A stretch of DNA of 63,025 bases from an uncultured Alphaproteobacteria bacterium (GTDB taxonomy: Bacteria > Pseudomonadota > Alphaproteobacteria > HIMB59 > GCA-002718135), in NCBI GenBank assembly GCA_902605135.1, contig CACLBK010000003.1, positions 1 to 63,025 of the forward strand. The letters run 5' to 3'. The notes beneath the pieces were generated by a model that was not told the origin of the DNA, ran no database searches, and saw only the letters and a program-made list of their open reading frames with translations. Of this stretch, positions 2,148 through 44,817 are shown piece after piece. The translations under genes and the position numbers were made by a program. Position 1 is the stretch's first letter. The number at the start of each line of letters is the position of its first letter.

Positions 2148-2654
2148 ATGAAACAAAATTCATTTACCTACGATCAATTAATTGATTGTGCAAAAGGTGT
2201 CCTATTTGGAAAAGGGAATGCTCAACTTCCAATGCCTCCTATGTTAATGTTTGATAGAATAACTTCAATAAATGAGAATGGTGGAATATTTTCTAAAGGT
2301 GAAGTTATTGCAGAATTAGATATTAAAGAAGACTTATGGTTTTTTGAATGTCATTTTAAAGATGATCCGGTAATGCCAGGTTGTTTAGGTTTGGATGCTA
2401 TGTGGCAATTACTTGGTTTTTATTTAGGATGGCTTGGCCAACCAGGGAAAGGTAGGGCTTTAGGAGTTGGTGAGGTTAAGTTTACCGGTCAAGTATTACA
2501 AAAAGTCAAAAAAGTAACTTACCATATATCTCTTAAAAGACTTATACTGAGAAAATTAATTTTAGGAGTTGGAGATGGTGTTTTAAAAGCTGACGGTGAG
2601 ACAATTTATGAAGCTAAAGATATGAAAGTCGGTTTATTTTCACCTGAGAATTAA
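2148..2654 (+). CDS. fabA: 3-hydroxydecanoyl-ACP dehydratase/isomerase
   Basis: [37 protein letters not shown]. Confidence 0.97.
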
Positions 2655-2656
2655 TA

Positions 2657-3874
2657 ATGAATAGAGTTGTAGTAACAGGTTTAGGTATCGTATCATGCAT
2701 TGGTAATAGTCAATCAGATGTTATAGACAGTCTTAAAAATTTAAAATCTGGGATTACAAGTGCAGAAGAATATGAGGAGTTTTCTTTTAGAAGTCTTGTA
2801 CATGGTAAACCAAACATAGATATTAGCAACCAAATAGATAGAAGATTACTCAGGTTTATGGGTGATGGAGCAGCATATAACTATATTGCAATGAAAGATG
2901 CTATAGAAGATTCAGGCTTAGAGGATAGTGATATTTCAAATGAAATGACTGGAATTATTGTTGGTTCAGGAGGTCCATCTACACAAAATTTATTTAAGTC
3001 TTCTGAAATTGGAAAGAGTGTAGGTTCAAAAAAAATTGGGCCATTTATGGTACCAAGAGCAATGTCTAGTACAAATTCTGCAACTCTTGCGACTCCTTTT
3101 AAAATTAAAGGAGTTAACTATTCAATTACTTCAGCATGTTCTACAAGTTCACATTGTATTGGTAATGCATACGAACTAATTCAGATGGGAAAACAAAATA
3201 TTGTTTTTGCTGGTGGGGGTGAGGAGCTCCATTGGACTTTATCAATTTTATTTGATGCAATGGGTGCTTTGTCATCAAAATATAATTCTACTCCAAACAA
3301 ATCTTCAAGGGCATATGATGCAGATAGAGATGGTTTTGTAATTGCTGGTGGAGGTGGAACTTTAGTACTTGAAGAATTAGAGCATGCAAAAGCTAGAGGT
3401 GCTAAAATATATGGTGAAATAACAGGATATGGAGCAACGTCAGATGGATATGATATGGTTCAGCCTTCTGGAGAAGGAGCAGAAAGATGTATGAAGCAGG
3501 CGTTAAAAAATATTGATAGTAAGATTGATTATATAAATACACATGGAACAAGTACTCCAATTGGAGATGTAAAAGAATTAGAAGCAATCAAAAATGTATT
3601 TGGTTTAAATATTCCAAAAATGAGCTCGACAAAATCTTTAACAGGACATTCCTTAGGGGCGACTGGTGTGCATGAAGCAATTTATAGTTTATTGATGATG
3701 AAAAATAATTTTATTAGTGGTTCTGCTAATATTGAAAAGCTTGATGATAGTGCTAAGGACTGTAATATTCTTTTAAAAACCGAAAATGATTTAGAAATTG
3801 AGCATGTTATGTCAAATAGTTTCGGTTTTGGTGGTACAAATGCAACATTAGTATTTTCAAAATATCATGCTTAG
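2657..3874 (+). CDS. fabB: Beta-ketoacyl-ACP synthase I
   Basis: [30 protein letters not shown]; follows fabA. Confidence 0.96.
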
Positions 3875-4640
3875 AAATAAAAAGGGTTTAGTATTTGGTA
3901 TTGCAAATAATCATTCAATTGCATGGGGAATTGCGAAACAGCTTGCTGATAATGGTGCTGAAATAGCCATTGGTTATCAAAACGAAATATTATTGAAGAG
4001 AGTAAAACCACTTTCTGAAAAAATTAATTCAAAAATACTGATAGAATGTGATTTCAATAATGATGACTCAATAAATAAATCTGTAGAAATTATAAGAAAA
4101 AAATGGGGTAAAATTGATTTTATAATCCATGCTGTTGCATTTGCAGATAAATCAGAATTAAATGGTAGATATGTTGATACTACGAAGGATAATTTTATTA
4201 ATTGTTTGGAAATATCATGTTTTTCATTAACTAGTCTTGCAAGAAGTTATGAACCTATAATGAATGATGGAGGAAGTATTCTAACCCTTACTTTTTACGG
4301 CTCAAATAAAGTGATACCAAATTATAATTTAATGGGAATTGCAAAAGCCGCTTTAGAAACAAGTGTAAAATACTTGAGTGTGGATTTAGGTACAAAAAAT
4401 ATTCGTGTGAATGCAATATCAGCAGGACCTATGAGAACTATTGCTGGTGCAGCAATAAATAATGCTAGAGAGGTGTTTAAATTTACTGAAGAACATTCAG
4501 CATTGAAACGAAATGCGCAACTAGATGAAATTGGTAAATCTGCTTTATACTTTGTTAGTGATTTATCTTCTGCAGTTACTGGTGAAATACATTATGTTGA
4601 CTGTGGTTACAATATTATTGGAATGCCAAGTAAACTTTAA
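3867..4640 (+). CDS. fabI: Enoyl-ACP reductase
   Basis: [34 protein letters not shown]. Confidence 0.96.
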
Positions 4641-28714: not shown

Positions 28715-29377
28715 ATGTTTGGACTAAAAAGTGCATCTTTATTTGGTGATACCAAAAAACTTGAGAGAGAAATTGATGAATTTGTCGATATTGTCTCTGA
28801 AGTAGGTTTAGTATTTAAATCTATTGTTCCAACTTATCTCAATCATTCCGCCAACGGTAAATTTGAGGAAATGGTTGAAAAAGTAAAAGAAATGGAAAGT
28901 AAGGCCGACAAAATTACGAAAGATGTTGAGCATACTCTTTATGAAGAAACACTAATCCCAGATGCAAGAAGTGATGTGTTACGACTTCTAGAACACATCG
29001 ACGAATTAATTGGAATGTACCAAGGGAATTGTTATCACTTCTCTATTCAAAAACCTAATTTTCCAAAAGAGTTTCACCAAGATTTAATTGAGTTAACAGA
29101 GACTGTTGTAAATTGTGTTGAATCATTATGTTTAACCGTAAGATCATTTTTTAGAGATATTAAATCTGTTAGAGATAATGCACATAAAGTTACATTTTAT
29201 GAAAAAGAATCTGATATAAAATTTAGTTCTCTTGCAAGAAGAATTTTTGATTCTGAATTACCCTTAGATCAAAAAATGCATCTTCGATACTTTGTAGAGA
29301 AAATTGATCGTATTTGTGATCAAGCAGAAGACATAGCTGACGAGGTTCAAATTTATGCTATTAAACGTTCCGTTTAA
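28715..29377 (+). CDS. DUF47/TIGR00153 PhoU-like phosphate transport regulator
   Basis: E..AD.I...V...LY...L.PD.R.D and D.AEDIAD motifs; immediately upstream of a pit gene. Confidence 0.88.
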   Translation: MFGLKSASLFGDTKKLEREIDEFVDIVSEVGLVFKSIVPTYLNHSANGKFEEMVEKVKEMESKADKITKDVEHTLYEETLIPDARSDVLRLLEHIDELIGMYQGNCYHFSIQKPNFPKEFHQDLIELTETVVNCVESLCLTVRSFFRDIKSVRDNAHKVTFYEKESDIKFSSLARRIFDSELPLDQKMHLRYFVEKIDRICDQAEDIADEVQIYAIKRSV

Positions 29378-29383
29378 TTTTCA

Positions 29384-30436
29384 ATGGAAATTACAATTCT
29401 AATTTTTTTATTTGGTGGTCTTTTTTTAGGTTGGTCACTTGGTGCTAATGATGCAGCAAATGTTTTTGGGACTGCTGTTGGAACGCGAATGGTTGGTTTC
29501 ACAACTGCAGCAATAATTTGTAGTGTCTTTGTTATTCTAGGTGCGATTATTAGCGGAGCAGGGACAACAGAAACTTTAGGTAAATTGGGTGCTATTAATG
29601 CATTGCCTGGTGCTTTTGCAGCATGTGTGGCTGCGGGAATATCTGTTTATTTAATGACCAAAGTTGGCTTGCCTGTTTCAACGACGCAAGCGATTGTTGG
29701 AGCAATTGTTGGTTGGAATTTATACACGGGATCTTCAACTAATCTTCAAGTCTTAATTACTATTTTAGGAACATGGATACTCTGCCCTATTATTGCAGGA
29801 GTTATTGCAATGGGTTTATTTACTTTTACAAAAAGAGTTATACTCAATAGAAAGCTACATATTCTCAGACTTGATGCGTATACAAGAACAGCTTTACTTT
29901 TAGCAGGTGCTTTTGGTGCTTATAGTTTAGGTGCAAACAATATTGCCAATGTAATGGGTGTCTTCGTACCTATATCGCCGTTTACTGATGTTACTATTGG
30001 AAATTTATTTGTCTTTTCTTCTAAAGAACAATTATTTCTTCTTGGTGGTTTAGCAATAGCCGTTGGTGTTTTTACTTACTCGAAAAGAGTTATGTTTACC
30101 GTGGGTAATGATCTTTTAAAAATGACACCTGTGGCAGCATTTATTGTTGTCATATCGCATTCTATTGTTTTATTTTTATTTGCATCCCAGGGTATAAGTG
30201 CTTTTTTACAATCTATAAATCTTCCCTCTATACCTTTGGTTCCAGTATCAAGTTCCCAAGCTGTTGTAGGCGGCGTAATTGGAATTGGTCTTTTAAAAGG
30301 AGGAAAAGAAGTTCAATGGTCAATTGCAGGAAGAATTTCTTTGGGTTGGATGACACTACCTATAATTGCAGCATTAATTTCTTTAATTGTTTTATTTATT
30401 CTAGAAAATATTTTTAATTTAACGGTCTCTTTTTAA
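29384..30436 (+). CDS. pit: Inorganic phosphate transporter, PiT family
   Basis: GANDAANVFGTAVG, GLPVSTTQA, GANNIANV, PVSSSQA. Confidence 0.95.
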   Translation: MEITILIFLFGGLFLGWSLGANDAANVFGTAVGTRMVGFTTAAIICSVFVILGAIISGAGTTETLGKLGAINALPGAFAACVAAGISVYLMTKVGLPVSTTQAIVGAIVGWNLYTGSSTNLQVLITILGTWILCPIIAGVIAMGLFTFTKRVILNRKLHILRLDAYTRTALLLAGAFGAYSLGANNIANVMGVFVPISPFTDVTIGNLFVFSSKEQLFLLGGLAIAVGVFTYSKRVMFTVGNDLLKMTPVAAFIVVISHSIVLFLFASQGISAFLQSINLPSIPLVPVSSSQAVVGGVIGIGLLKGGKEVQWSIAGRISLGWMTLPIIAALISLIVLFILENIFNLTVSF

Positions 30437-30957
30437 TTAACTGCTCGATAAGAAAAAATAAAATCTTCTTGGATTTTTGACTCAATAGCCCCTTTTCTTC
30501 TTGATCGCACTAGATCGATAGCTTCTTGTTTTTCATAATTAAATTCAACAAGTAAAATAGCAGCTATGGTGCCAGCCCTTCCTTTGCCTCCACGGCAATG
30601 CAAAACTATATTTTTTCCATCTATCAATTCATTCTTTAATAAAACTTTTGTTGTTTCCCATTTATATTTAAAATCTTTATCTGGTGCTCCCATGTCATAG
30701 ATGGGTAAATGGTACCAATGTAATTTATGTTCATAAATACTTTTGACAAAAAAAGTTTTATCACACAATTTTTCAAATTCGCTATCTTCAACAAAAGAAC
30801 TAATAGAACTACAATTATTATTTTTAAATATTTCTAATTCATTTGCTAAAATTTTTTCTTCAAACAAACCATAAGAATTAAGACCTGGAAAGGAAGTTAA
30901 TATAATTTTTCCTGCAAATGACTTAGAGTCAATAAAATCATAATTGCTAAATTGCAT
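30433..30957 (-). CDS. Cys-dependent (CX5R) dual-specificity/PTP-like phosphatase, CDKN3-like
   Basis: HCRGGKGRAG P-loop, HLPI.D..APD, R..R.GAIE...Q. Confidence 0.88.
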   Translation of the reverse strand: MQFSNYDFIDSKSFAGKIILTSFPGLNSYGLFEEKILANELEIFKNNNCSSISSFVEDSEFEKLCDKTFFVKSIYEHKLHWYHLPIYDMGAPDKDFKYKWETTKVLLKNELIDGKNIVLHCRGGKGRAGTIAAILLVEFNYEKQEAIDLVRSRRKGAIESKIQEDFIFSYRAVN

Positions 30958-31533
30958 TTACGCTTGTTTAGCTAAAAAAGACTGTCTTGCTTCTTCTAAA
31001 TAGGGACGGAAATGTTCAACATCGGGAGTTTTTTTATCTAGAATTTTTGCTAAATCATCAAATCTTCTAAGTTCTACTGCCTCATCCATAAAAGGTTTGC
31101 CGATAAACGCATCTGCTTCTTCTTTTGTGAAAGGACCACCTTGAACTTTTAACGAAAGTTTCGATGCTTCTGATAGGCTATCATAATAACCCTCTTCAAC
31201 ACTTGATAAATATCTTTTTGAATCAACATGTGCTCTAATTGGTAAAATAACATCTTCACCAAAATATTTTTTTAAAAAATCAGCACCTAAGTTTTCATGA
31301 TGACCATCTTTGCCTTCATGAATGGGATCGCCGTCCTCATAGATAAGGTGGCCAACATCATGCAGTAATGCTGCAGCAATTGTTGGTCCTGGTAATTTAT
31401 GTTTTTCAGCAAGTTCAGCGCATTGGAGTGCATGCTCAAGCTGGGTCACATCCTCATTACCATATTGAATATCAGCACCTTTTGTTTTCAAAAGATCTAA
31501 GAGATAATCTACGATATTTTCTTCCATTCTCAT
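30958..31533 (-). CDS. phnZ: HD-domain diiron phosphonate oxygenase, PhnZ/TmpB family
   Basis: VTQLEHALQCA, ALLHDVGH, HENLGA, HVDSKRYL, SL..QGG, RRFDD.AK; divergent from phnW. Confidence 0.85.
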   Translation of the reverse strand: MRMEENIVDYLLDLLKTKGADIQYGNEDVTQLEHALQCAELAEKHKLPGPTIAAALLHDVGHLIYEDGDPIHEGKDGHHENLGADFLKKYFGEDVILPIRAHVDSKRYLSSVEEGYYDSLSEASKLSLKVQGGPFTKEEADAFIGKPFMDEAVELRRFDDLAKILDKKTPDVEHFRPYLEEARQSFLAKQA

Positions 31534-31621: not shown

Positions 31622-32719
31622 ATGGATAAAAAATTATTAACCCCTGGTCCTCTCACGACATCGATGTCAACAAAAGAGGCTATGCTTCATGATTGGGGTT
31701 CAAGGGATACAAAATTTATTGATCTCAATGCATCAATTAGAGATTCCCTTGTTAAATTAATAGACGGTGAAGATAAATATCAATGTGTTCCAATGCAGGG
31801 AAGTGGAACTTTTGCTGTAGAGTCGATGGTGAGCTCTCTTACTCAAAAAGATTCTAAAATTCTGATTCTGATCAATGGTGCTTACGGACAAAGAATGAAA
31901 AAAATGTGCACTTATTTAGGGAGAGATTTTATTGAATATGAAGTTGCTGAACATGAAGTACATGACATCAATAAAATTGAAGAGTTAATTGATAGCAACA
32001 ACTTAACACACGTCTTTGCTGTATATTGTGAAACAACATCGGGTATTTTAAATCCTATTGAAGAGATTGCAAAATTAGTTGAAGGGAAAAACTTATCTTT
32101 ATTCATCGATGCAATGAGTGCCTTTGGTGCATTACCCTTAAGTTCTAAAACAATTACTTTTGATGCTGTAGCCGCTTCATCAAACAAATGCTTAGAAGGT
32201 GTGCCAGGTGTTGGTTTCATTCTTGTTAAAAATGATGTTATTCAAAATGCAAAAGGCAATAGTCACTCACTAAGTCTAGACCTGTATGATCAATGGCAAG
32301 CAATGGAAAAAAATAAACAATGGCGATTTACACCTCCTACACACGTATTGGCTGCATTCAACCAAGCTATTGAGGAACATAAAAAACAAGGCGGTGTAGA
32401 GGGAAGAGGTAAAAGATATAAAAAAAATTGTGAAATTATTTGTAATGGAATGAAAGAGTTGGGATTTGAGCAATTACTTCCTGATAATTTGCAAGCACCA
32501 ATTATTATTACTTTTAAACAACCTAATGATCCTAAATTTAATTTTGAGAAGTTTTATAATGCTCTTAGTGAAAAAGATTTTTTAATTTATCCTGGAAAAC
32601 TAACCGTGGCAGAAACTTTTAGAATTGGGTGTATTGGTAATTTAGATGAACAAGACATGATGGATACTATAAAGGCAGTAAAAGAAGTTGTTACTGAATT
32701 GGGACTAACATTAAACTAA
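31622..32719 (+). CDS. phnW: 2-aminoethylphosphonate--pyruvate transaminase
   Basis: LLTPGPLTTS, DWGSRD, CETTSG, DAMSAFG, SSNKCLEGVPG, QWRFTPPTH, IYPGKLT. Confidence 0.97.
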   Translation: MDKKLLTPGPLTTSMSTKEAMLHDWGSRDTKFIDLNASIRDSLVKLIDGEDKYQCVPMQGSGTFAVESMVSSLTQKDSKILILINGAYGQRMKKMCTYLGRDFIEYEVAEHEVHDINKIEELIDSNNLTHVFAVYCETTSGILNPIEEIAKLVEGKNLSLFIDAMSAFGALPLSSKTITFDAVAASSNKCLEGVPGVGFILVKNDVIQNAKGNSHSLSLDLYDQWQAMEKNKQWRFTPPTHVLAAFNQAIEEHKKQGGVEGRGKRYKKNCEIICNGMKELGFEQLLPDNLQAPIIITFKQPNDPKFNFEKFYNALSEKDFLIYPGKLTVAETFRIGCIGNLDEQDMMDTIKAVKEVVTELGLTLN

Positions 32720-32726
32720 CAAAACT

Positions 32727-33359
32727 ATGACAAAAGAAATTGAAATACCTTTAGTTAAAGCAACAAATGAAAATCTTAAAGGATATGGGTATTTAATCGA
32801 TAGTTTTGAAAATAGTGATATTGAAATTGTTACTTGGCCAAAACAAGGATGGCGCGACATAGAAGAGGGAACAGGAAATGAAGGTGGAACTACCGAAGGT
32901 TCTTTTGATACCTGGTGGCAAGGTGACGTGCTTTATGGACAAAATAATGCTGTCCAACATAAGAGCGATTATGAAGTAGATGGAAAATATATACTGGGTT
33001 ATGCCAATAACCCCGATCAAGAATTGCAAAAAGATAAATATTCAGATCCAACAAAAATATTTCTATGGCATGCAAATTATCATCCTGATGGAGGTCAGCT
33101 TTTTTTTCCTGCAGAAAATAAACCATTTATTTGTCCTTTAGCTTTACCAACAGACGACATCGAACCAGAACATTTCAAAGCATTTTATTGTGATGGATCA
33201 AAAGGTTTGTATATTCATCCAAACATTTGGCATGAAGGGGTGTTTCCAGTTTCAGAAAAACAATCATTTCAAGGAAAACAAGGTAAAGTACATGCAAGAG
33301 TTAGCATCGACTTAAAAGAGGAATTTAATAAGTATATTTATTTTAAAACTGCGGTCTAA
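32727..33359 (+). CDS. Ureidoglycolate-lyase-like cupin protein of unknown function
   Basis: AT.E....YG.L, HANYHPDGGQLFFP, F.AF..DG..GL.I.P..WH pattern as in AllA-like cupins. Confidence 0.65.
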   Translation: MTKEIEIPLVKATNENLKGYGYLIDSFENSDIEIVTWPKQGWRDIEEGTGNEGGTTEGSFDTWWQGDVLYGQNNAVQHKSDYEVDGKYILGYANNPDQELQKDKYSDPTKIFLWHANYHPDGGQLFFPAENKPFICPLALPTDDIEPEHFKAFYCDGSKGLYIHPNIWHEGVFPVSEKQSFQGKQGKVHARVSIDLKEEFNKYIYFKTAV

Positions 33360-33379: not shown

Positions 33380-34168
33380 ATGAAAATTATTCATCTTTCA
33401 GACCCTCATATTTATATAGATAAGATTCATGGCATAGATCCTGTCAGTAAATTTAAAAAAGCATTAAGTCATATAAAAAATAATCATGGTGATGCAGATT
33501 TATTTGCCATCACTGGTGATATTACAGACTTAGGTGATAAAGATTCTTATCAGTTATTTATAAAAATCATTGATGAAGCAGGTCTGCCAAAGAATTTAAA
33601 TCCTCAATTAATTATAGGTAATCATGATAACAGAGATGAGTTTAAAATAAACTTTCCTAATATTGAAACCGATCCAAATGGATTTATTCAATACTTTAAG
33701 GATATAGATAATAAACGTTTAATTTTTATAGATACTAATCTAATTAATACTCACCAAGGACATTACTGTGAAGAGAGGCAAGAATGGTTAAATAATATTT
33801 TAAGTAAGACTAATACAGATACGTATATCTTTATGCATCATAATCCACTGGCATTAGTAAAAGAGGAAAGTGATGGAATAGGATTACAACAAAAAAAAGA
33901 GTTTCAAAAAATTTTAACGAAAAATAATAAGATAATAAAACATATTTTTTTTGGTCATCAACACATTACAAGTTCTGGCTCTTATTGTGGTATTACTTTT
34001 TCTTCACCAAGAAGTACTTGGTCTCCTCTAATACCTAACTTTTCAAATGAATATCGTTTAGGAACAGCTAATACAGATACAAATTATAATGTTGCAATAA
34101 TTCGATCTGACGCCTTAATTATTCATACAGAGGATTTTTTAAAAACAGAAGTTAATTGGTTTAAATAA
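33380..34168 (+). CDS. Metallophosphoesterase/phosphodiesterase, GpdQ/CpdA-like
   Basis: HLSDPH, TGDITD.G, GNHD.R, MHH.P, FGHQH. Confidence 0.9.
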   Translation: MKIIHLSDPHIYIDKIHGIDPVSKFKKALSHIKNNHGDADLFAITGDITDLGDKDSYQLFIKIIDEAGLPKNLNPQLIIGNHDNRDEFKINFPNIETDPNGFIQYFKDIDNKRLIFIDTNLINTHQGHYCEERQEWLNNILSKTNTDTYIFMHHNPLALVKEESDGIGLQQKKEFQKILTKNNKIIKHIFFGHQHITSSGSYCGITFSSPRSTWSPLIPNFSNEYRLGTANTDTNYNVAIIRSDALIIHTEDFLKTEVNWFK

Positions 34169-34172
34169 AAGA

Positions 34173-35279
34173 TTATTTTTTTTCGATTACAAATATTTCA
34201 TTGTTAAAATAAAGACCTTTATTTTTAGCAACAATGTTTTGGACTACTTTTTCGTAATTTTTTGTTTTTTCTACCTTCATTACTTTTTCGTCATCCATTT
34301 GGTTGACATATATGGAGGCATTCCAAGCAGAGAAAACTAATGATGTCGCTATACCTCCAGTGATTTCTGTTGGAAGAGCTCTCAGTTTACATTTAATAAT
34401 TCTTTTTTCTCCAAAAGATAAACTGCTTAATAACTCTTTATCTAAATTTTTCTTAAGATAAGAAACGATACTATTTCCAAGAGAAGGAAAAGGGTCCTCT
34501 TTTGGCCAAATTTTTCGAATTATTTCATTAGCAGGATCTTTTCCTGAAGCATGAATAGTTAATAATTTCCCTTTTGATTTTAAGGCTCTAATCATTGGTT
34601 CAATGACATATTTTGATTTCTTTTCTGCTGAAATTCTTGACCGATAAGGCTGTGAAGCAATAATAAGATCAAATTTATTATCTGATCTTTTTTTGGTAGG
34701 GATTAATTCATTAACATTAAATTCTTGATCTTCGCGGTAGATAACCATGACTGAAGGCTCTTTATAAGTATGGTTACCTGATTTTTTATTAATTTCTATA
34801 TTCCATTTTTTTTCTAAAAATTCATTTTGTTTTCTTAATTGTTGAGCAAATTCAAGAGAAGTGTCACCTTTTAATTTAATAATATTCCAATTAATTTTTT
34901 TCTGTTTAACTTCATTTTTTGATTTTAGGTTTGCGGCTTCCGCGTAGTGTAGATTTGAAATGACAAAAACAGTATTCTTATGCTCAACAAACCTATCGGG
35001 TAATTTTTCTAAACCTAATCTTACATCTTCTATGCTTATTTCTTTTGTGCAAACTAATAGAGGTACGTTAGGCCTAGCTTCGTGGCACTGACGCATTACA
35101 TTCATAAGTAAAGAACCATCCCCCATACCAGCATCAAATATTTTTAAACCAGGTTTTTGAGGTTTAATTTTATTTACGTGAGGACGTATCGCATCGGCAA
35201 TTTGATTTTTTTCATTTGTTGTTGTGACAAATAATAAATATTTTTGTCTGTTATCATAAAACCTGAAATTTTTTTTCAT
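34173..35279 (-). CDS. Conserved hypothetical protein with class I SAM-binding-like motif
   Basis: IFDAGMGDGS motif-I-like, KEIS.ED, FDLIIASQPY; 2 nt downstream of the Fe-ADH gene. Confidence 0.6.
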   Translation of the reverse strand: MKKNFRFYDNRQKYLLFVTTTNEKNQIADAIRPHVNKIKPQKPGLKIFDAGMGDGSLLMNVMRQCHEARPNVPLLVCTKEISIEDVRLGLEKLPDRFVEHKNTVFVISNLHYAEAANLKSKNEVKQKKINWNIIKLKGDTSLEFAQQLRKQNEFLEKKWNIEINKKSGNHTYKEPSVMVIYREDQEFNVNELIPTKKRSDNKFDLIIASQPYRSRISAEKKSKYVIEPMIRALKSKGKLLTIHASGKDPANEIIRKIWPKEDPFPSLGNSIVSYLKKNLDKELLSSLSFGEKRIIKCKLRALPTEITGGIATSLVFSAWNASIYVNQMDDEKVMKVEKTKNYEKVVQNIVAKNKGLYFNNEIFVIEKK

Positions 35280-35281
35280 TA

Positions 35282-36394
35282 CTAATAAAGTCCCATTGAT
35301 TTAGCAGAAGAGATGAAGGCTTCTTTATTGCCAATAAAGTTTTTACCTCGTTCCCCTAAAAACGCATCATCTACTATATTATTCCATTCTTGAACAGGAA
35401 CTTTTATTTCATTTAAGTTAAGAGGAACCTCTAAAGAACGCATAAATTCACTCAGATGATTTGCGGCATTCTCTAGGTTATCGTTAAAAATTAATTTTAG
35501 TCTTTCTTCAGCTACACTATCAATTCCAACCATACTTTTAGTAATCATCGGTAAAGTAAATGAACAAGCAATACCATGCTGAATACCGTAATTGAGTGTC
35601 ACAGGGTATGATAGATTGTGCGCAATAGCAGTTTTCGTATTGGAAAACGCTAAGCCAGCATGAACGCATGCCAATGCAATGTTTGAGCGTAATACAACAT
35701 TTCTTAAATCTTTAGTGAGAAGTGGTAAATTTTCTAATACTAATTTTGATGCTTGTATTGCATGAGAAGCAGAAATTGGGTTCGCATTAATATTCCAAAT
35801 ACTTTCCATTGAATGGGAGAGAGCATCTAAACCAGTTGAAATGGTCAAGCCTAAAGGCTTATCAACCATAATAGATGGATCAATAATTGCTTTTTCTGCA
35901 TAAAGAGATTTATGAGCCAAAGATAATTTATTGTTTTTTTCTTTATCCCAAATTGTGGCCCAACACGTAAGCTCACTTGATGTTCCTGAAGTTGTAGGTA
36001 TTGCAATAATCTTGATTGAATTTTCGACTCTTGGACTTTTCTTATTGCGAACGAAATCTGTTAGGTATTCTTGTTTATCTTTAAATGCAGCAATTGCTTT
36101 AGCTGTGTCTGTAACAGAGCCACCACCTATAGCTAAAATATAATCTACCGATTCATTGATTAAAGAAAATTTTTTTTGTAGCTCTAAAATATCCTTATAA
36201 TCTGGATTAGGTTGAACATCCGTCATAATGGATAAGGGTGGATTTGAAGAAGATTTTAATTCATCGCTATATTTTTTAAAAATTTCTTCTGGATGAGTGA
36301 TAATGATGTAGTTCTTATTTTTAAGAGCATCATGTACTTCTTTAAATCTATTTTCTCCAAAGATAATTTCAACAGGGTTAAAATAATTCCACAT
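35282..36394 (-). CDS. Iron-containing alcohol dehydrogenase, hydroxyethylphosphonate dehydrogenase/phosphonoacetaldehyde reductase-like
   Basis: GGGS..D.AK, PTTSGT.SE.T.WAT.WD, DALSH..ES.W, AFSNTKTAIAH.LSY..T...HG.AC; metal ligands intact. Confidence 0.85.
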   Translation of the reverse strand: MWNYFNPVEIIFGENRFKEVHDALKNKNYIIITHPEEIFKKYSDELKSSSNPPLSIMTDVQPNPDYKDILELQKKFSLINESVDYILAIGGGSVTDTAKAIAAFKDKQEYLTDFVRNKKSPRVENSIKIIAIPTTSGTSSELTCWATIWDKEKNNKLSLAHKSLYAEKAIIDPSIMVDKPLGLTISTGLDALSHSMESIWNINANPISASHAIQASKLVLENLPLLTKDLRNVVLRSNIALACVHAGLAFSNTKTAIAHNLSYPVTLNYGIQHGIACSFTLPMITKSMVGIDSVAEERLKLIFNDNLENAANHLSEFMRSLEVPLNLNEIKVPVQEWNNIVDDAFLGERGKNFIGNKEAFISSAKSMGLY

Positions 36395-36398
36395 TACA

Positions 36399-37478
36399 TT
36401 AAATTGATTTTGCCGCTTTAGTTAAAATTGTCATTTTCTCAATTGCTTGTTCTCTTGTAAAAAAACCTAATCCACAATCAGGAGCAGCAATTAAACGATT
36501 TTCATCAATATGCTCTAAAGAATCTTTCATACGAACTCTAACTTCTTCTACTGTCTCCATTCTGCTTTTAGCAATGTCAATAAATCCAAAAATAACTTTT
36601 GTTTTTGTAAATTTTTCTAAAAGATTTAAGTCATTATGTCTGTGGGAGTCTTCTAAGGATACTTCGTCAATTGTAGAGTCATCTACTAAAGTAGCAATTC
36701 TATCATAAGCATCTAATTCTGCTTTCTTGTATCCATGAGAATCTAAGGAATTTGGATAACCACAACAGATATGACAAACTCGTTGAACTTCTTTTGGAAT
36801 ACCATGCATCATTCTTTCCAAGTTTTCCATGCCATAAGCATTGGCCTCATCGGGTTTTCTTGCAAAAACTGGTTCATCAATTTGGATATATTGACAACCA
36901 GCATCTGCTAGAGCTTTTACCTCTTTGTTTAGAGCCAAAGCTAAATCAAAACCAAGTTTTTTCATGTCATCATAATAATTATTAGCAATAGAATCTGTTA
37001 TTGTCATCGGTCCGGGGAGAGTTATTTTAACTGGATTTTTTGTAAATTGCTGAGCACTTTTCCAATCTATATGCATTCGAATTTCTTTACTTGAAATTGG
37101 AGCTACTATCGTTGGAAGATCAGCTTCAAAGGCTCCTTGTCGTACAGATTTATGAGTTACCTCTTTAAAACTTACACCATTTAAAAAACGACATTGGTAT
37201 AAAACATAACTTTCACGTCTTACTTCTCCATCAGTTGGAACATCAATTCCCGCATTTACCTGATCAATAATAACTTCTTTAATTGCTTCTAAAAATAATT
37301 TTTCTGCTTCTTCACCTGCTGACTCTAATGCCTTTTCATAAGCGCCTGGAGACCAATTAGATAAAAGTCCTTTTGAAGCTTTTCTCTCTTCTTCTGATTT
37401 GGTACCTAAAAACCAATCTTGAATTGGTGTCTGTTTTGGTTTTGGATATGCACCTATGGTAGTAGTTGTAAGAGGCAT
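36399..37478 (-). CDS. Stand-alone MetE C-terminal (cobalamin-independent methionine synthase II / core) family Zn enzyme
   Basis: TTIGAYPKP, TDGE.RR, K.TLPGP.T, IQIDEP, HICCG, APDCG; 359 aa with no N-terminal MetE barrel. Confidence 0.88.
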   Translation of the reverse strand: MPLTTTTIGAYPKPKQTPIQDWFLGTKSEEERKASKGLLSNWSPGAYEKALESAGEEAEKLFLEAIKEVIIDQVNAGIDVPTDGEVRRESYVLYQCRFLNGVSFKEVTHKSVRQGAFEADLPTIVAPISSKEIRMHIDWKSAQQFTKNPVKITLPGPMTITDSIANNYYDDMKKLGFDLALALNKEVKALADAGCQYIQIDEPVFARKPDEANAYGMENLERMMHGIPKEVQRVCHICCGYPNSLDSHGYKKAELDAYDRIATLVDDSTIDEVSLEDSHRHNDLNLLEKFTKTKVIFGFIDIAKSRMETVEEVRVRMKDSLEHIDENRLIAAPDCGLGFFTREQAIEKMTILTKAAKSI

Positions 37479-37508: not shown

Positions 37509-37533
37509 ACAGCGGCTTTTATAAAGCCGCTGT
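37509..37533 (-). terminator. Stem-loop after the SBP gene (terminator or mRNA-stabilising hairpin)
   Basis: ACAGCGGCTTT-TAT-AAAGCCGCTGT perfect 11-bp stem, followed by TTTATTTT on the minus strand. Confidence 0.75.
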
Positions 37534-37560: not shown

Positions 37561-38814
37561 TTATAGAAGATCGTTTATTTCTTCCATCATCTCTTCTTGA
37601 AGATCACCCATGTCGTCAGCATCACCTGTAGCAATTTCTTCAGTATAATCATAGATTACCTGAGTTACTGCTAATCCGTTTTCACCAGGATATGCAAACC
37701 AATCGGCTAATAATGGAAGTTGTTCAACAGCAGTAAGTTTATTAGGGTTTTCACTATAGAAATCACCTAATAATTCATTCGCTGCTTTATTTGGTGGAAC
37801 GTATCCAGTAGTTTCAGCAACAAGTGCTGCACCTATACCAGAAGTAATGAACTTTAAGAAAGTCCAAGCCGCATCCACTCTTGCTGGGTCATCAGAAGTA
37901 GAAACCAACATCGCAGCATTACCACCTGCTGGTAGTCTTGCTGGTGTTCCATTATTCACACCTGCCATTCCAGGAAATGGTGCTGTTTTAAGAACAAAAT
38001 CTGCTTTTGCAGCATTAACTGAACCTAAGCTAGAAGTTGACCAGAACATCATACCGATAGTACCTGCATTAAAAGCAGCTTGACCATCAGCAATTGAATA
38101 GTTTGGCATATTACAACCACTCATGATTTCTTTCATTTGTTCTAAAGTAGCCAGACCTGCATCTCCACCCATGTTGACAGTTCCATCTTTTACCATTGGT
38201 ACATTTTGAGTATGCATTAAAGCTTGGTGGAACCAGTTACCTGTAATGTTCCAACCAAAATATAAAGTTCCTTTTCCAGCTGCCTCTAATTTATTACAAG
38301 CTGCAATAACTTCATCCCAGTTGGTTGGGATGCTATCTATACCTGCTTCAGCTAATAAATCCATGTTGTAGTATCCAACTGGAGTTGATACAGAAAATGG
38401 TAAACCATAAACTTCACCACCAAAGGTAGATAGGCTTAACATTGCAGAGTGATAACCATCTTTTTCAAAATCAGCTTCTCCTGCAATAAAAGGTTCAAGT
38501 GATTTTGCAATTTCTTTATCAACCAATGGCGCTTGTCTATTAAGACCTTGCATTGTTACATCTGGTAAATTACCTGAAGTTGATTCTCTGAAAATTGTTG
38601 CAGTAGCATCCTCATAGTTTTCATAAGTTGCTCTGAACTTTACTTGAATATCTGGATGTGCTTTTTCAAACTCTGGCATAATAGCTTGAAACGTTACATC
38701 GAATAATCCTGAATAAGGATAAGCTACTTCTATCTCAATAGATTTAGCTGAATTAACTGAACCATAAAAACCAAAAGCTAATACAGCAGCTAATCCTGTA
38801 ATTAATTTTTTCAT
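37561..38814 (-). CDS. ABC transporter substrate-binding protein, CUT1/UgpB-like
   Basis: Signal peptide, YGLPFSVSTPV.YYN.D, P..WDE, GGNAAM, AAW.FLKF, TGY.P; RBS GGAGG. Confidence 0.88.
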   Translation of the reverse strand: MKKLITGLAAVLAFGFYGSVNSAKSIEIEVAYPYSGLFDVTFQAIMPEFEKAHPDIQVKFRATYENYEDATATIFRESTSGNLPDVTMQGLNRQAPLVDKEIAKSLEPFIAGEADFEKDGYHSAMLSLSTFGGEVYGLPFSVSTPVGYYNMDLLAEAGIDSIPTNWDEVIAACNKLEAAGKGTLYFGWNITGNWFHQALMHTQNVPMVKDGTVNMGGDAGLATLEQMKEIMSGCNMPNYSIADGQAAFNAGTIGMMFWSTSSLGSVNAAKADFVLKTAPFPGMAGVNNGTPARLPAGGNAAMLVSTSDDPARVDAAWTFLKFITSGIGAALVAETTGYVPPNKAANELLGDFYSENPNKLTAVEQLPLLADWFAYPGENGLAVTQVIYDYTEEIATGDADDMGDLQEEMMEEINDLL

Positions 38815-38954: not shown

Positions 38955-40397
38955 TTACCAAGGTAAAGAAAATGTTTTAACGTTGGTAAAGCTTTTCATC
39001 GCTTCAATTACACCCTCTTTATAACCAAGACCTGAGTCTTTAATTCCTCCAAAAGGAGACATTTCAATTCTGTAGCCTGGCACCTCCCAAATATTTACAG
39101 TGCCAACATTTAAACCTTGAATATATTTTTTTGCTCGCATGAAGTTGTTTGTACATACACCTGATGATAATCCAAATGCTGTAGAATTAGAAATATTCAT
39201 CACGGCATCATCATCATTTGGTACACGGATGATTGGAATAACTGGACCAAATGTTTCTTCTAAAACTAATTCACTTTTAGGATCAACATTGTCTACTACT
39301 ATTGGAGGCAACAACGCACCGTTTCTTCCAGGGTGATATAAAATTTTAGCACCGTCTTCTTCCGCCATTGAAACTCTTTTATCAAATAGTTCTGCAGCTT
39401 GAACATTAACAACTGTTCCTAAATCTGTTTCCATATTCATTGGGTCACCAAATTTAATTTTTTTTGCTCTTTCAAGAGTCATTTCAACAAATTGATCAGC
39501 AATTGATTCTTGAACTAAAATTCTTTTAACTGCAGTACAGCGCTGTCCTGAATTTTTTGTTGCGCCAGTAACAGCTAGCTCAACAGCTTTTTTAAGGTCA
39601 TCGACGTCTAAATCATTTAATACAATTAATGGATCGTTTCCACCAAGTTCTAGAACAGTTCTTTTATATCCAGCTTGTTCGGCAATTAATTTTCCTACAC
39701 CTACACTTCCTGTAAAAGTAATAAGATCGATATTTGGGTTCTTAATCATTTCAGAGCCAATATCTTGCGGCCACCCGGTAACAACTGAAAACATTTCTGG
39801 TGGTAAACCAGCTTCGTATAAAACATCAGCGAGTACCATTGCTGTTAAAGGTGTTAATTCTGTCTGCTTACAAACAGTACAATTGTTTGTTGCAATTGAT
39901 GGAGCAATTTTATGTGCTACCATATTCAAAGGATGATTAAATGGAGTGATTGCTGAAATAGCTGTTAATGGTTCTCTTATAGTAAATATTTTTCTTGCTT
40001 TTCCATGTGGAGTTAAATCACAAGAAAATATTTCTCCATCATCTAGAATACAAAGTTGAGCCGTTAATGAAAATACATCGAAAGCTCTTCCTACTTCGTA
40101 TAAAGAATCTTGTTTTGAGATACCAAGTTCTAAAGTAATAATATCAGAAATTTCTTCTTTTCTTTTAACAAGTACTTCTGCAGCAGTTTGAAGAATTTTT
40201 TGTCTCTCATATCTTGTAAGTTTAGGTTGGTAATTTGCAGCAATATCTAGAGCCTTTCTTGCATGCTCAGCAGTACCGGCAGGGACCGTGCCGATTACTT
40301 CACCTGTAAAAGGGTACTCAACATTTATTGTTTTATCTGAAGTAACTTTTTCTCCAGCTATACGCATTGCTTCATTAATCATTTTTTTGTGCATCAT
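38955..40397 (-). CDS. phnY: Phosphonoacetaldehyde dehydrogenase (NAD+ ALDH)
   Basis: [57 protein letters not shown]; coupled to phnA. Confidence 0.95.
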
Positions 40398-41635
40398 AGG
40401 GCTCCGTTAATTGCATAGTAAAATGCATCATAGTTATATAATTGTTTGCTAGTATCTATGTTTTGTAATTTTAAATTTGATATGAATGGCACTTCTCTTT
40501 CATGAAGTCCACCATGAGAACGTAAAGGTTCATTTAATCCAGAAAGATTGTGTTTATCTTCCGATGAACCAATGGTCATAAATTCTGAAGACATACATAT
40601 TATGTCTCCCATTCTATCAGGGGGTAAGTTATAAGTAGAGCATCCTTCGTCTTTTGTTAAAACAACTTCTATATCTTTTATTTCTTTGATAGCATTTACA
40701 ACTGAATCTACCTTACTTTTGTCTTCTAAATAAATTGTTGCAAAAGAACCAAGTGAACCATGATGCACGACATATGGATCTGTAATTGGTAGAATAACTT
40801 TAGCCATGTTTGGTTCAAATTTATTATCTAAATAATCTTGTAAAAATATTGCATTAGGTGAACCGTCTTCTTTTGATTTTGGTTTCATACCGTGATCTGC
40901 TGTAATGATTATAGAAACATTCTCCTTATTTAAAAGACCAATATATTTATCAAACATTGCATAAAATTTATTTGCTGTTTCATTTCCTGGTGCATATTTG
41001 TGCTGAATATAATCTGTTGTCGATAAATACATGATATTTGGTTTGAACTCTTCAAGAAGCTTTACACCTGCGGCCATTACAAATTCAGAAAGTCCTTCAG
41101 AGTATACTTCTGGCACTGGCATTCCCAACCAATCGTTTACATTATCTATACCATTGAGATCTTTTGTTGCTTGATCAGATTTTTCAGCAGAAAAACAAAT
41201 AGCTCTCTCATCATCAAAACTTAATCCGTTTCCTAAAAGTGTTCTCAGCTTATCTTTTGCAGTAACAAGAGCAATTTTAGAACCAGAATTGTAAAATTTT
41301 TCAAAAATAGTTGGTGCTCGCATATATTTTGGGTCATTCATCATTACTTCTTCACCAGTCTCGGGTGTATAAAAAAAGTTTCCGCATATACCGTGAACAG
41401 AACTTGGCTGCCCAGTTACAATGGAAATATTATTAGGATTTGTAAAACTTGGAATAGCGCTGTGAACAAGTAGGTTTTCACCACTTGCAATTAGTTTGTC
41501 AAGATTTGGCGTAAGATTTGATTTTGATGCTTCGTCGAGATACTCTTTTTGACTACCATCAAGACATATAACAATAGCAGTTTTTGAGAAAGAGCTTGGA
41601 TATTCTCTTTTATTAATTTCTAAATTATCAGACAC
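40394..41635 (-). CDS. phnA: Phosphonoacetate hydrolase (GTG start)
   Basis: [51 protein letters not shown]. Confidence 0.96.
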
Positions 41636-41812: not shown

Positions 41813-42952
41813 GTGGGCACAATATCACTTAAAAATATTTCAAAGTCATTTGGATCTACGCAAGTATTAAACAATTTAAATGTTGATATACAAGATGGCG
41901 AATTTTTAACATTAGTTGGTCCATCTGGTTGTGGTAAATCTACGTTACTTCGAATCATTGCAGGATTAGAACAACAAACTTCAGGCGATGTATTAATTGA
42001 TAATAAGAATGTAAATAAAATTAGAGCCAGCGAGCGAGATCTTGCAATGGTATTTCAATCATACGCTTTATATCCACATTTAACGGTACGAAGAAATTTA
42101 GAAACACCTCTAAGACTGAGAGATTATAATGCTTTTGAACGCCTTCCTTTAATAGGGAATTTTTCTCCAAACAAAAAAAATAAAACTGAGTCTATCAATC
42201 AATTAGTTAATAAAACATCTGAAACACTTCAGATTTCTGAACTACTGGATAGAAAACCAGGACAATTATCAGGAGGCCAAAGACAAAGAGTAGCTCTTGG
42301 TCGCGCAATGGTAAGAGAACCTGTTGCATTCTTAATGGATGAACCGCTATCAAATTTAGATGCCGCTCTAAGAGTGCATATGCGATCTGAATTATCAGAA
42401 CTTCACAATTCACTTAAAACAACATTTGTTTATGTAACGCATGATCAAGCAGAAGCATTGACAATGTCTTCTCGTATGGCGGTAATGATTGATGGAAATT
42501 TATTACAACTAGATACACCTCAAGAAGTTTATGATAATCCTTCATCATTAAGTGTTGCGCAATTTGTTGGTAGTCCTAAAATAAATATTTTTAATGGATC
42601 TTCAGATTCTAGTGGAACTGTTAATTTTTTAAATGTTAACCTGAAAAGAAAAAGTTCTGAAAGTAATTCAGATTTACACATAGGAATTCGACCAGAACAT
42701 TTAGAAATTACTAATGATAAAGATGAAAACACATTTAGTGGCACTGTTGCTTACAGAGAAAATTTAGGATCAGATATATACTTCCATGTTAATATAGAAG
42801 ACAACTCAAAAAAAATAATTGTAAGAGGCTTACCTCAATTTACACATCAAATTACAAATGGTTCAAGTGTAAATATCAAGAGAGATTCAAATAAAGCATT
42901 GTTATTTAATCAAACAGGGATGAGGATTCATTTTAATAATGCAATGGGATAA
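41813..42952 (+). CDS. ABC transporter ATPase, CUT1 (UgpC/MalK-like), GTG start
   Basis: GPSGCGKST, VFQSYALYPH, LSGGQRQRVA, MDEPLSNLD, YVTHDQ. Confidence 0.93.
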   Translation: MGTISLKNISKSFGSTQVLNNLNVDIQDGEFLTLVGPSGCGKSTLLRIIAGLEQQTSGDVLIDNKNVNKIRASERDLAMVFQSYALYPHLTVRRNLETPLRLRDYNAFERLPLIGNFSPNKKNKTESINQLVNKTSETLQISELLDRKPGQLSGGQRQRVALGRAMVREPVAFLMDEPLSNLDAALRVHMRSELSELHNSLKTTFVYVTHDQAEALTMSSRMAVMIDGNLLQLDTPQEVYDNPSSLSVAQFVGSPKINIFNGSSDSSGTVNFLNVNLKRKSSESNSDLHIGIRPEHLEITNDKDENTFSGTVAYRENLGSDIYFHVNIEDNSKKIIVRGLPQFTHQITNGSSVNIKRDSNKALLFNQTGMRIHFNNAMG

Positions 42953-42967
42953 GGATAACATTTACTA

Positions 42968-43924
42968 ATGCATAATTCAAAAGCGCATCTATGGTTTATT
43001 GCCCCTGCAATAATACTCATGATAATTATTTTAATCTTTCCTCTTTTTCTTGCAGGTGGAATTTCCTTTACTGATTATAATCTAGGTAACAAAACATTCG
43101 AATGGATTGGGTTAGAGAACTATGACAAAATGTTTAACCGAAAAACTTATGTGAAAATGATTTGGGCGACAGCCACGTATGTAATTGTTGTGGTGCCTAT
43201 TTCAGTTATACTTGGTTTATGTGCAGCGATGCTCTTGAATTCTCTTCGATTTGGTGCTGACATATATAAAACTATTTTCTTTCTTCCTGTTATGGCGACA
43301 CTTCTGGCAATGGCTATTGCTTGGGAATTCACTCTTCACCCAACTCTTGGAATAGTAAATAGTTTTTTAGCTAATGGTTGTGGTGGTGCAAGAGAATTTA
43401 TTTTTGGTTTTCATTGGTTGCCGTGGGTAGATTCAGAACAAAGTTGGTATGCAGTGGCGTGTGCAAATAACATGGACTTTCCTTATTGGTTAAAACAAAA
43501 AAATACTGCCATTTGGACTGTGTGTTTTATTGGAATATGGCAAGCCTTTGGTTTCAATATGGTTTTATATTTAGCTGGATTAACAGGTATACCAAGAGAG
43601 TTATACCAAGCTGCAGAAATGGATGGGGCTAAATCAACATGGGAACAATTTAAACTTGTAACATGGCCAATGCTTGGTCCAACAACTTTATTTGTTGTAA
43701 CCATAACTACTATTAGAACCTTTCAAGTTTTTGATACAATTGAAATACTCACAAAAGGTGGTCCATCTAAAACAACCTACGTTATGATGTATGCAATTTT
43801 TGAAAAAGCTATTCAACAAAATTTAACAAGTATTGGTGCGGCTATCACAGTTGTATTCATTGGCTTTATATTGATATTAACTTTCTTCCAAAGATATATC
43901 ATTGAGAAAAGGGTTCATTATTAA
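42968..43924 (+). CDS. Carbohydrate-type ABC permease 1 (UgpA-like)
   Basis: ELYQAAEMDGA EAA loop, F.VFD.I..LT.GGP. Confidence 0.92.
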   Translation: MHNSKAHLWFIAPAIILMIIILIFPLFLAGGISFTDYNLGNKTFEWIGLENYDKMFNRKTYVKMIWATATYVIVVVPISVILGLCAAMLLNSLRFGADIYKTIFFLPVMATLLAMAIAWEFTLHPTLGIVNSFLANGCGGAREFIFGFHWLPWVDSEQSWYAVACANNMDFPYWLKQKNTAIWTVCFIGIWQAFGFNMVLYLAGLTGIPRELYQAAEMDGAKSTWEQFKLVTWPMLGPTTLFVVTITTIRTFQVFDTIEILTKGGPSKTTYVMMYAIFEKAIQQNLTSIGAAITVVFIGFILILTFFQRYIIEKRVHY

Positions 43925-44817
43925 TGGAAGCTAAACAGTATATTGGAGAAGGTTGGAAACATGCAATATTAATTGTTGGTGCAATTGTTGTGTTGTTGCC
44001 TTTTTATATGATGGTTTCAATGTCATTAAAATCTCAACAAGAAATTCAATCTATTTCTGGAGGTTTAATTGGTGCACAAGAAACTCAAACATTTCCCGTA
44101 TGTGTAAAAACTGGATACTCAGAAGAAGAATGCACAATGAAACCATATAAATACAACTATTGGTTTGCTTTCGAAAAGGCTCCTATTCCAAGATACTTGA
44201 TGAATGGTGTTATCGTTACTTTATCAATTTTTATTATTCAGGTTCTTGTCGCCTTACCGTGTGCTTACGCACTGGCCAAACTTAGATTTTATGGACGAGA
44301 ATTTGTTTTCTCGATGGTTCTATTTTGTTTACTCATTCCAGTGCATGGTATTGCACTTCCGCTTTATGTCATGCTTGCTCAGGCAGGTTTGGTCGATACC
44401 TATTCTGCCTTAATACTCCCCTGGACAATATCGGTATTTGGAATCTTTTTAATGCGGCAATTTTTTATGACAGTCCCAGATGAATTAATTGATGCCGCCA
44501 GAATGGATGGAATGGGAGAGTATGCTATCGTCTGGAAAGTAATGCTTCCAACTGCGATACCAGCGTTGCTTGCCTTTGCAATATTCTCCGTAGTTGCACA
44601 CTGGAATGATTATTTCTGGCCTCGTATGGTAATAACAGGAAATAGAGATCTCTTTACACCACCTCTTGGTATCAGAGAATTTAGAGGAGGAATTGATAGT
44701 GATGAATTTGGTCCAATGATGGCTTCAATTGTTACAGTTACAGTGCCTCTCATTGTTGCTTTTATAATTGCGCAAAAAAGATTTATTGAAGGAATTACTT
44801 TAACAGGAATGAAGTAA
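43924..44817 (+). CDS. Carbohydrate-type ABC permease 2 (UgpE-like)
   Basis: ELIDAARMDG, WNDYFWP, Q.RFIEGI. Confidence 0.92.
   Translation: MEAKQYIGEGWKHAILIVGAIVVLLPFYMMVSMSLKSQQEIQSISGGLIGAQETQTFPVCVKTGYSEEECTMKPYKYNYWFAFEKAPIPRYLMNGVIVTLSIFIIQVLVALPCAYALAKLRFYGREFVFSMVLFCLLIPVHGIALPLYVMLAQAGLVDTYSALILPWTISVFGIFLMRQFFMTVPDELIDAARMDGMGEYAIVWKVMLPTAIPALLAFAIFSVVAHWNDYFWPRMVITGNRDLFTPPLGIREFRGGIDSDEFGPMMASIVTVTVPLIVAFIIAQKRFIEGITLTGMK

Follow-up and report, generated by a model that had tools for sequence, protein, structure and literature searches.

A MetE-like zinc protein of a separate subfamily in a phosphonate gene cluster: a putative stand-alone homocysteine methyltransferase

What does a protein resembling the catalytic barrel of the methionine synthase MetE do inside a phosphonate catabolic cluster? 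The question is raised by the genome of an uncultured alphaproteobacterium of the HIMB59 lineage (GenBank assembly GCA_902605135.1), of which positions 1 to 63,025 of contig CACLBK010000003.1 were analysed; this whole stretch of 63,025 nucleotides is referred to as the window. The available portion of PMC12478193 describes the role of truncated 'core-MetE' proteins in aerobic marine bacteria as open. As the gene neighbourhoods yield a short list of substrates that can be bought or have been published, the question is directly testable. The features considered are as follows.

30958..31533, minus strand: PhnZ/TmpB-like HD oxygenase (TIGR03276 199.9, cut-off 214.6; TmpB model 155, cut-off 300)
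31622..32719, plus strand: PhnW AEP:pyruvate transaminase (TIGR02326, 460 bits, over cut-off)
32727..33359, plus strand: ureidoglycolate-lyase-like cupin (three database proteins combine it with a MetE-like subfamily member in a fusion)
33380..34168, plus strand: metallophosphoesterase, the usual partner of the SBP family (directly behind the SBP in 10/11 SBP-homolog loci)
34173..35279, minus strand: unnamed methyltransferase-like protein, 368 aa (no Pfam or NCBIfam match over threshold; Atlas clusters 'Methyltransferase family protein')
35282..36394, minus strand: Fe-ADH family protein (PsrA-like), likely a PhpC-type 2-hydroxyethylphosphonate (HEP) dehydrogenase (TIGR03405, 362 bits, below the cut-off of 423.7)
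36399..37478, minus strand: Zn enzyme resembling the MetE core, from an uncharacterised subfamily related to MesD (PF01717, 123 bits; 32% identity to annotated MesD; PRK09121 198.8, cut-off 392)
37509..37533, minus strand: intrinsic-terminator-like hairpin in the gap between SBP and MetE-like gene (11-pair stem and U tract; z -3.5)
37561..38814, minus strand: CUT1/UgpB-like ABC solute-binding protein, SBP (family match; in 14/22 clade loci)
38955..40397, minus strand: PhnY phosphonoacetaldehyde dehydrogenase (TIGR03250, 797 bits, over cut-off)
40394..41635, minus strand: PhnA phosphonoacetate hydrolase (TIGR02335, 467 bits, over cut-off)
41813..44817, plus strand: ATPase and permease pair (UgpC/A/E-like) that form one importer with the SBP (family match; co-travel)

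The MetE-like gene is confirmed as genuine. It encodes 359 aa from an ATG start with a GGGAG motif upstream, and Meth_synt_2 is the sole Pfam match over cut-off in its product, the same search revealing neither an N-terminal folate barrel nor a match to PF02574 (S-methyl_trans). The motifs HICC (at 236), SLED (at 274) and APDCG (at 332) contain the Zn ligands H236, C238, E276 and C335. A sequence-only reading of the locus had described just such a single-barrel MetE homolog with intact Zn ligands and no N-terminal half, placed between an SBP and an Fe-ADH gene; both points hold, with the refinement that the SBP is of the UgpB-like CUT1 type and not the known AEP binder AepX/PhnS2. The AlphaFold model (pLDDT 94.3) has MesD (3RPD) as its top structural match (TM 0.83; 159 bits).

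On the minus strand the order is phnA, phnY, SBP, MetE-like gene, Fe-ADH and methyltransferase-like ORF, with 82 bp between the SBP stop and the MetE-like gene and 4 bp to the Fe-ADH start. Where the contig permits, the same order was found in 70 loci of close kin (80-100% identity, not independent), with the SBP in 67 and the Fe-ADH in 69. Transcription from the SBP would have to read through the hairpin, which is spanned by one RNA-library contig (record 21) that does not in itself prove a single transcript. RNA-library contigs of four of the 14 RNA holders covered parts of the gene in all four cases; as these contigs carry neither level nor strand and may hold DNA, the coverage is not taken as proof of expression. 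A promoter scan was at chance level (36 vs 33.5), and a riboswitch search of 40 loci found no SAM riboswitch.

Judged by family scores and phylogeny, the protein belongs to a separate, uncharacterised subfamily and not to MesD. It scored 199 bits against the MesD model (PRK09121, cut-off 392), for which a true MesD encoded beside MesX reached 686, 114 against the MesA model (cut-off 258) and 91 against TIGR01371 (cut-off 930). A search of 401 genomes from the class gave 19 matches above 300 bits, spread over 16 genomes, with the next best at 176 bits or less; the former, own gene aside, share 47-55% identity. In a FastTree phylogeny built from 106 subfamily loci plus 6 outgroup rows, without XecA, MesA-C and MetE, the subfamily formed its own long branch, with a support of 0.70 including and 0.98 excluding its deepest member. 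Matches occurred in 59 of 81 genomes at the order level and in one genome besides the own one in a phylum-level sample of 401; the family sample around G155 comprised only 6 genomes. The subfamily is entirely absent from genome G030 (99% complete). Viral contigs gave no match to the gene; 188 records of a plasmid collection matched, with identities of at most 34% among the 60 matches listed. The C-terminal part of one protein (P0014) is closer to the paralog described below than to the phosphonate copy, and two others (P0063 and P0069) matched only 72% of the query; all three are possible recombinants or assembly chimeras.

Across the 106 loci, many of which are close kin and not independent, H236, C238 and E276 are present in 106/106 and C335 in 105/106 (one gap), and the homocysteine-site residues E85, D201 and Y241 are likewise invariant (106/106), while the Ser contact position (Ser22 in MesD, Ser433 in MetE) is A10 here and Ala in 100/106. 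At six further positions (R207, C239, D246, K252, D277 and H279) the subfamily shows little or no variation, whereas the outgroup mostly has other residues; R207 is invariant in the former, occurs in one of the 6 outgroup rows and corresponds, in the sequence alignment, to the pterin-binding Glu of MetE. R207, K252 and H279 could form a putative oxyanion site that accommodates a small donor. Taking all readings together, we consider it probable that the protein methylates homocysteine in one way or another.

Partner proteins of known methionine synthases were searched for in five genomes each. MesX (DUF1852) was found in 0/5 genomes, in a search in which no positive control was detected; a MesX query matched two outgroup loci but gave no hit in the 68% complete own genome. 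The MetE N-terminal half (PF08267, over cut-off), the B12-binding domain PF02310 and the MttB family PF06253 were each found in 0/5 genomes, with controls detected. These absences point to a small molecule as the likely donor. By family scores and missing partners, an ordinary MesD, an ordinary MetE and a corrinoid-linked synthase were all rejected, in agreement with the sequence-only reading, which had set the protein apart from such enzymes. That reading had also considered the opening of an epoxy-phosphonate such as fosfomycin by an epoxide:thiol transferase. Epoxyalkane:CoM transferase does share the MetE-barrel fold; however, the closest characterised relative by both sequence and structure is MesD, and no alkene-oxidation or CoM genes recur among the annotated neighbour families. 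Genomic context thus lends the epoxide idea no support, and we regard it as very improbable.

The window gene falls within a clade of 22 loci (support 0.997) on contigs of 31-66% GC, 4 of the 22 having less than 300 bp of upstream DNA. A CUT1 SBP is encoded in 14 of these loci, phnA/phnY/phnW/phn-LysR in 9 and a metallophosphoesterase in 4, and an alcohol dehydrogenase, from two different families, lies directly downstream in 9. In this clade the subfamily is reproducibly tied to an organophosph(on)ate importer, and the phosphonate link recurs in unrelated lineages. Where this copy is missing from related genomes (18 phosphonate regions, 17 genomes), so is the importer; three of these genomes keep the Fe-ADH. 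SBP homologs without a MetE-like gene also exist, some with 60-66% identity (as on Phaeobacter plasmids), and a metallophosphoesterase is the next gene in 10 of 11 such loci, which makes a phosph(on)ate ester the likely cargo of the importer. The MetE-like gene is likely an add-on to this importer, and the metallophosphoesterase of the window probably cleaves the imported ester. Two Phaeobacter plasmids (L258:7815-14143 and L259:7822-14135) carry a mobile module of LysR, CUT1 importer and metallophosphoesterase, the SBP being 62% identical to that of the window, and in both the module adjoins conjugation genes. As a neighbourhood control, phosphonate markers within 1.5 kb were counted in 6/15 subfamily loci versus 1/14 outgroup loci (p 0.08), a weak comparison in which several markers stem from the same loci and which is partly circular.

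Other genes of the cluster proved less constant companions. The 34173-35279 ORF occurs without the MetE-like gene in six loci (L149, L150, L153, L157, L158 and L163), indicating separate inheritance, and a fixed trio of MetE-like gene, Fe-ADH and methyltransferase-like ORF was rejected, the latter two occurring without the first. A homologue of this ORF lies upstream of the importer in L164 and L166. The cupin is fused to a subfamily member in three related database proteins (P0123-P0125; MetE-like part 43% and cupin part 47% identical to the proteins of the window). Its co-occurrence with the subfamily is 3/14 versus 15/385, kin not being independent; it adjoins tmpB or phn-LysR in 4/18 loci and follows phnW in the window. 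The cupin is thus a further tie to phosphonate metabolism, yet no fixed partner: it was found in 0/5 cassette genomes of family f2 (see below), and an obligatory MesX-like role is not supported on this ground and because the fusion is confined to three related proteins. Genes for a PhoU-like DUF47 protein, a dual-specificity phosphatase and a PiT phosphate transporter flank the cluster (28715-30957). In the 68% complete own genome, a search for TmpA yielded no ortholog, the best match having 31% identity.

Outside the clade lie 84 of the 106 loci, mostly in non-phosphonate settings and with the same active-site residues, so that the phosphonate-specific role proposed earlier is too narrow. Within 6 kb, these 84 loci encode a PotD-type importer (25 loci) or an omega-aminotransferase (19); xsc/tau genes (8), DMG-dehydrogenase-like (6), PehA-like (3) and betA-like genes (4) and methionine-cycle genes (6) were also found, and a TmpA-type gene is near 5/84 loci from four families, two of three scanned TmpA candidates being over cut-off. 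Since the active-site residues are unchanged between settings, one chemistry is likely across them, and the shared substrate denominator would likely be X-CH2-CH2-N(methyl), where X can be a carboxylate, a sulfonate or a phosphonate. Beta-alanine betaine and taurine betaine occur in nature. The own genome encodes a paralog (48% identity; L001:8447-9496) directly behind a PehA-like phosphonate monoester hydrolase (both within L001:8447-11110, G000:C17), with an SBP5 importer and an omega-aminotransferase/alanine dehydrogenase pair as neighbours. In L097 (G049:C56), a separate MesD-like protein (59% to MesD) adjoins an AepX-like binding protein (52%). In L187, an MttB-family methyltransferase gene (2564-4108) containing an Rfam PYLIS_3 match follows a subfamily member at a distance of 19 bp, with PhnZ-like and cupin genes nearby.

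Many subfamily members sit amid housekeeping genes, and metK, ahcY or metY are near in 10 loci. A general methionine synthase that uses another cellular donor or partner and hitch-hikes in catabolic islands would account for these settings; in addition, MetE and MetH appear to be missing from these genomes and the cupin fusion hints at a partner. However, the phosphonate copy has been gained and lost together with the importer, the 99% complete G030 does without the subfamily and the cupin was not found in the five f2 cassette genomes searched. Furthermore, a core-MetE homolog failed to rescue methionine auxotrophy in Phaeobacter according to the available portion of PMC12478193, although the subfamily may differ. 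A general role therefore seems unlikely to us.

Alternatively, the protein might be a MetE-fold methyltransferase that passes a methyl group from glycine betaine (or choline) to homocysteine and is recruited wherever betaine arises, from TmpAB, choline, carnitine or, once the phosphodiesterase has acted, glycerophosphocholine. Such a donor would suit the order tmpA-tmpB-MetE-like gene-dmgdh in L108, the betA/betB/betC/carnitine genes nearby in other loci and the f2 phosphoesterase, which adjoins betA in 4/4 loci. It would also suit an apparent swap between homologous clusters, the own-genome choline/carnitine cluster having a PF02574 homocysteine methyltransferase where L113 and L117 have the MetE-like subfamily. 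Yet the genome already encodes a PF02574 enzyme, and two features would stay unexplained, namely operons that encode MMSDH and an aminotransferase of the beta-alanine type, and the close association with phnA, phnY and HEP dehydrogenase, which leaves glycine betaine a rather unlikely general donor. The own-genome cluster (L269, G000:C16:2418-18363) comprises GcvT-like, PF02574 methyltransferase, SBP5 importer and betA-like genes, as well as carnitine dehydrogenase, BKACE and an HD protein. One tmpAB cluster contains a frameshifted subfamily member (L117:9065-10125), and in another tmpA is broken by an IS1595 element (L112:5935-8698).

The sequence-only reading had further supposed that demethylation would turn the substrate into one that PhnW accepts. 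Of the 34 genomes in family f2, 15 carry a copy of 70-72% identity, each at a distance of about 4 kb from phnA, and six f2 regions show the order ABC-phnA-phnY-SBP-MetE-like gene-FeADH. PhnW was found in 0/34 f2 genomes (best 143 bits vs 361, checked in five) and a PbfD-type (TIGR03364) oxidase in 0/4. An obligatory link to PhnW was therefore rejected, the proposal failing as a general rule, and these cassettes offer no visible exit for a demethylated amine. In the available portion of Piazza 2026 (PMC13576164), PhpC-type enzymes oxidise HEP and are often encoded with phnY-phnA in the absence of phnW, which explains the Fe-ADH without help from the MetE-like gene. Such a role for the Fe-ADH leaves room for alternatives in which the MetE-like gene yields HEP. 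A PhnW-less sister cassette in G030 (L146:9644-18877) has the order phnA-phnY-TIGR03364 oxidase-DUF6-HAD-AepX importer, an alternative occupant of the slot.

One such alternative is that the MetE barrel is no methyltransferase and that its Zn site cuts the C-N bond of trimethyl-AEP, giving HEP and trimethylamine (or hydrates vinylphosphonate to HEP), with HEP oxidised by the next gene's product for PhnY and PhnA and no methionine formed; beta-alanine and taurine betaines would be cut elsewhere. The alcohol dehydrogenases of two families directly downstream in 9/22 clade loci, the f2 cassettes without PhnW and PbfD and the PbfD-type oxidase and AepX in the slot behind phnY in G030 would all fit. 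The invariant homocysteine-site residues argue against it, as do the three genomes with an Fe-ADH but no MetE-like gene and the beta-alanine-type operons, which show a transaminase rather than an alcohol dehydrogenase; we hold C-N cleavage to be quite unlikely. The second is O-demethylation of a phosphonate or phosphate methyl ester, e.g. HEP methyl ester, to methionine and the free acid, which would likewise supply HEP in PhnW-less cassettes. The MetE-like gene occupies the slot behind the SBP that holds a phosphoesterase in 10/11 other loci, and the paralog follows a PehA-like monoester hydrolase; however, loci of the beta-alanine and taurine type share this active site and have no phosphoester genes. 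We know of no abundant marine phosphonate methyl ester, which also counts against this donor, and consider it improbable.

Our preferred explanation, to which we assign a probability of roughly 0.4, is a stand-alone homocysteine methyltransferase whose donor is an imported N-methylated 2-aminoethyl-oxyanion, in the window probably trimethyl-AEP or a similar headgroup of the choline type. The CUT1 importer would bring in a glycero-phosph(on)ate ester and the metallophosphoesterase would free the headgroup, whose N-methyl would be attacked by the Zn-thiolate while R207, K252 and H279 hold the oxyanion, yielding methionine without folate, B12 or MesX. The main gain would be the methyl group, and the C-P skeleton would reach PhnY and PhnA only where an amine-removing enzyme is present; the HEP dehydrogenase would process HEP independently of the MetE-like gene. 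Acting on the betaines of beta-alanine and taurine, such an enzyme would also account for the remaining members of the family. An N-methylated phosphonate as methyl donor had already been proposed from the sequence, and this part we retain, though not its restriction to phosphonates; overall, the sequence-only interpretation is partly supported. In favour of this explanation, the 17 related phosphonate genomes without the importer are also without the MetE-like gene. According to the available portion of PMC10590968, neither PhnW nor the Pbf oxidases act on trimethyl-AEP, for which TmpAB is the only route described. Several observations count against methyl transfer from such a donor: Ala replaces Ser in 100/106 loci, housekeeping settings are common, the neighbourhood control is weak, none of the 40 loci searched has a SAM riboswitch and SBP orthologs (60-66%) occur without the gene. 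Moreover, f2 cassettes without PhnW or PbfD and the alcohol dehydrogenase next to 9/22 clade genes fit the HEP-yielding alternatives better, and for members encoded beside TmpAB a simpler donor is glycine betaine.

The subfamily is widespread in a single abundant lineage of streamlined bacteria, from which MetE and MetH appear to be missing. If methyl harvest from phosphonate headgroups and betaines is true, it would represent a new folate-, B12- and partner-free methionine synthase and tie phosphonate and osmolyte turnover to methionine supply. If C-N cleavage is true, it would provide an oxygen-free and transaminase-free entry into PhnY/PhnA and a new marine source of trimethylamine in very abundant bacteria.

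Among characterised proteins, MesD is similar in its single catalytic barrel, Zn ligands and Glu/Asp/Tyr contacts (31-35% identity), and the 359 aa fall within the MesD-type size range of about 340-390 aa for a catalytic barrel only. The homocysteine contacts of MesD are S22, E73, D188 and Y226 in the available portion of Price, Deutschbauer and Arkin 2021 (PMC7857596). In contrast to MesD, the window protein has the invariant residues R207, C239, D246, D277 and H279 and Ala at the Ser22 position, and its gene lies behind the importer of a catabolic cluster with no MesX found. MesA, MesB and MesC are likewise Zn/homocysteine barrels without folate domain, but are corrinoid-dependent, whereas the hosts here are streamlined marine bacteria without a detected B12-binding domain or MttB. 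The truncated MetE of Phaeobacter (PGA1_c27430) also retains its Zn ligands, and its function is unclear in the available portions of PMC12366255 and PMC12478193, which propose no donor or neighbourhood link. There, Mausz et al. (PMC12478193) question the function of core-MetE homologs in marine bacteria, and Narvaez-Barragan et al. (PMC12366255) report that core-MetE deletion in Phaeobacter left DMSP lag shortening unaffected. No paper tying the MetE-like gene to phosphonate clusters was found, although the gene may appear in Dataset S2 of PMC12478193 or among the clusters tabulated in PMC13576164. PbfB/C/D (PMC10590968), PhpC/PbfG (PMC13576164) and TmpAB are, in the available portions of these sources, comparable as recurrent accessories of phnW/phnY/phnA that broaden the substrate range; these feeders oxidise or hydroxylate, however, and none saves the methyl group as methionine, a word with 0 occurrences in the three main texts on Pbf/PhpC feeders that were searched. 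BHMT/MmuM (PF02574) resembles the proposed enzyme in that homocysteine, bound to Zn, receives its methyl group directly from an onium compound; the MetE-like protein belongs to a different family and may work like one of these enzymes without being one.
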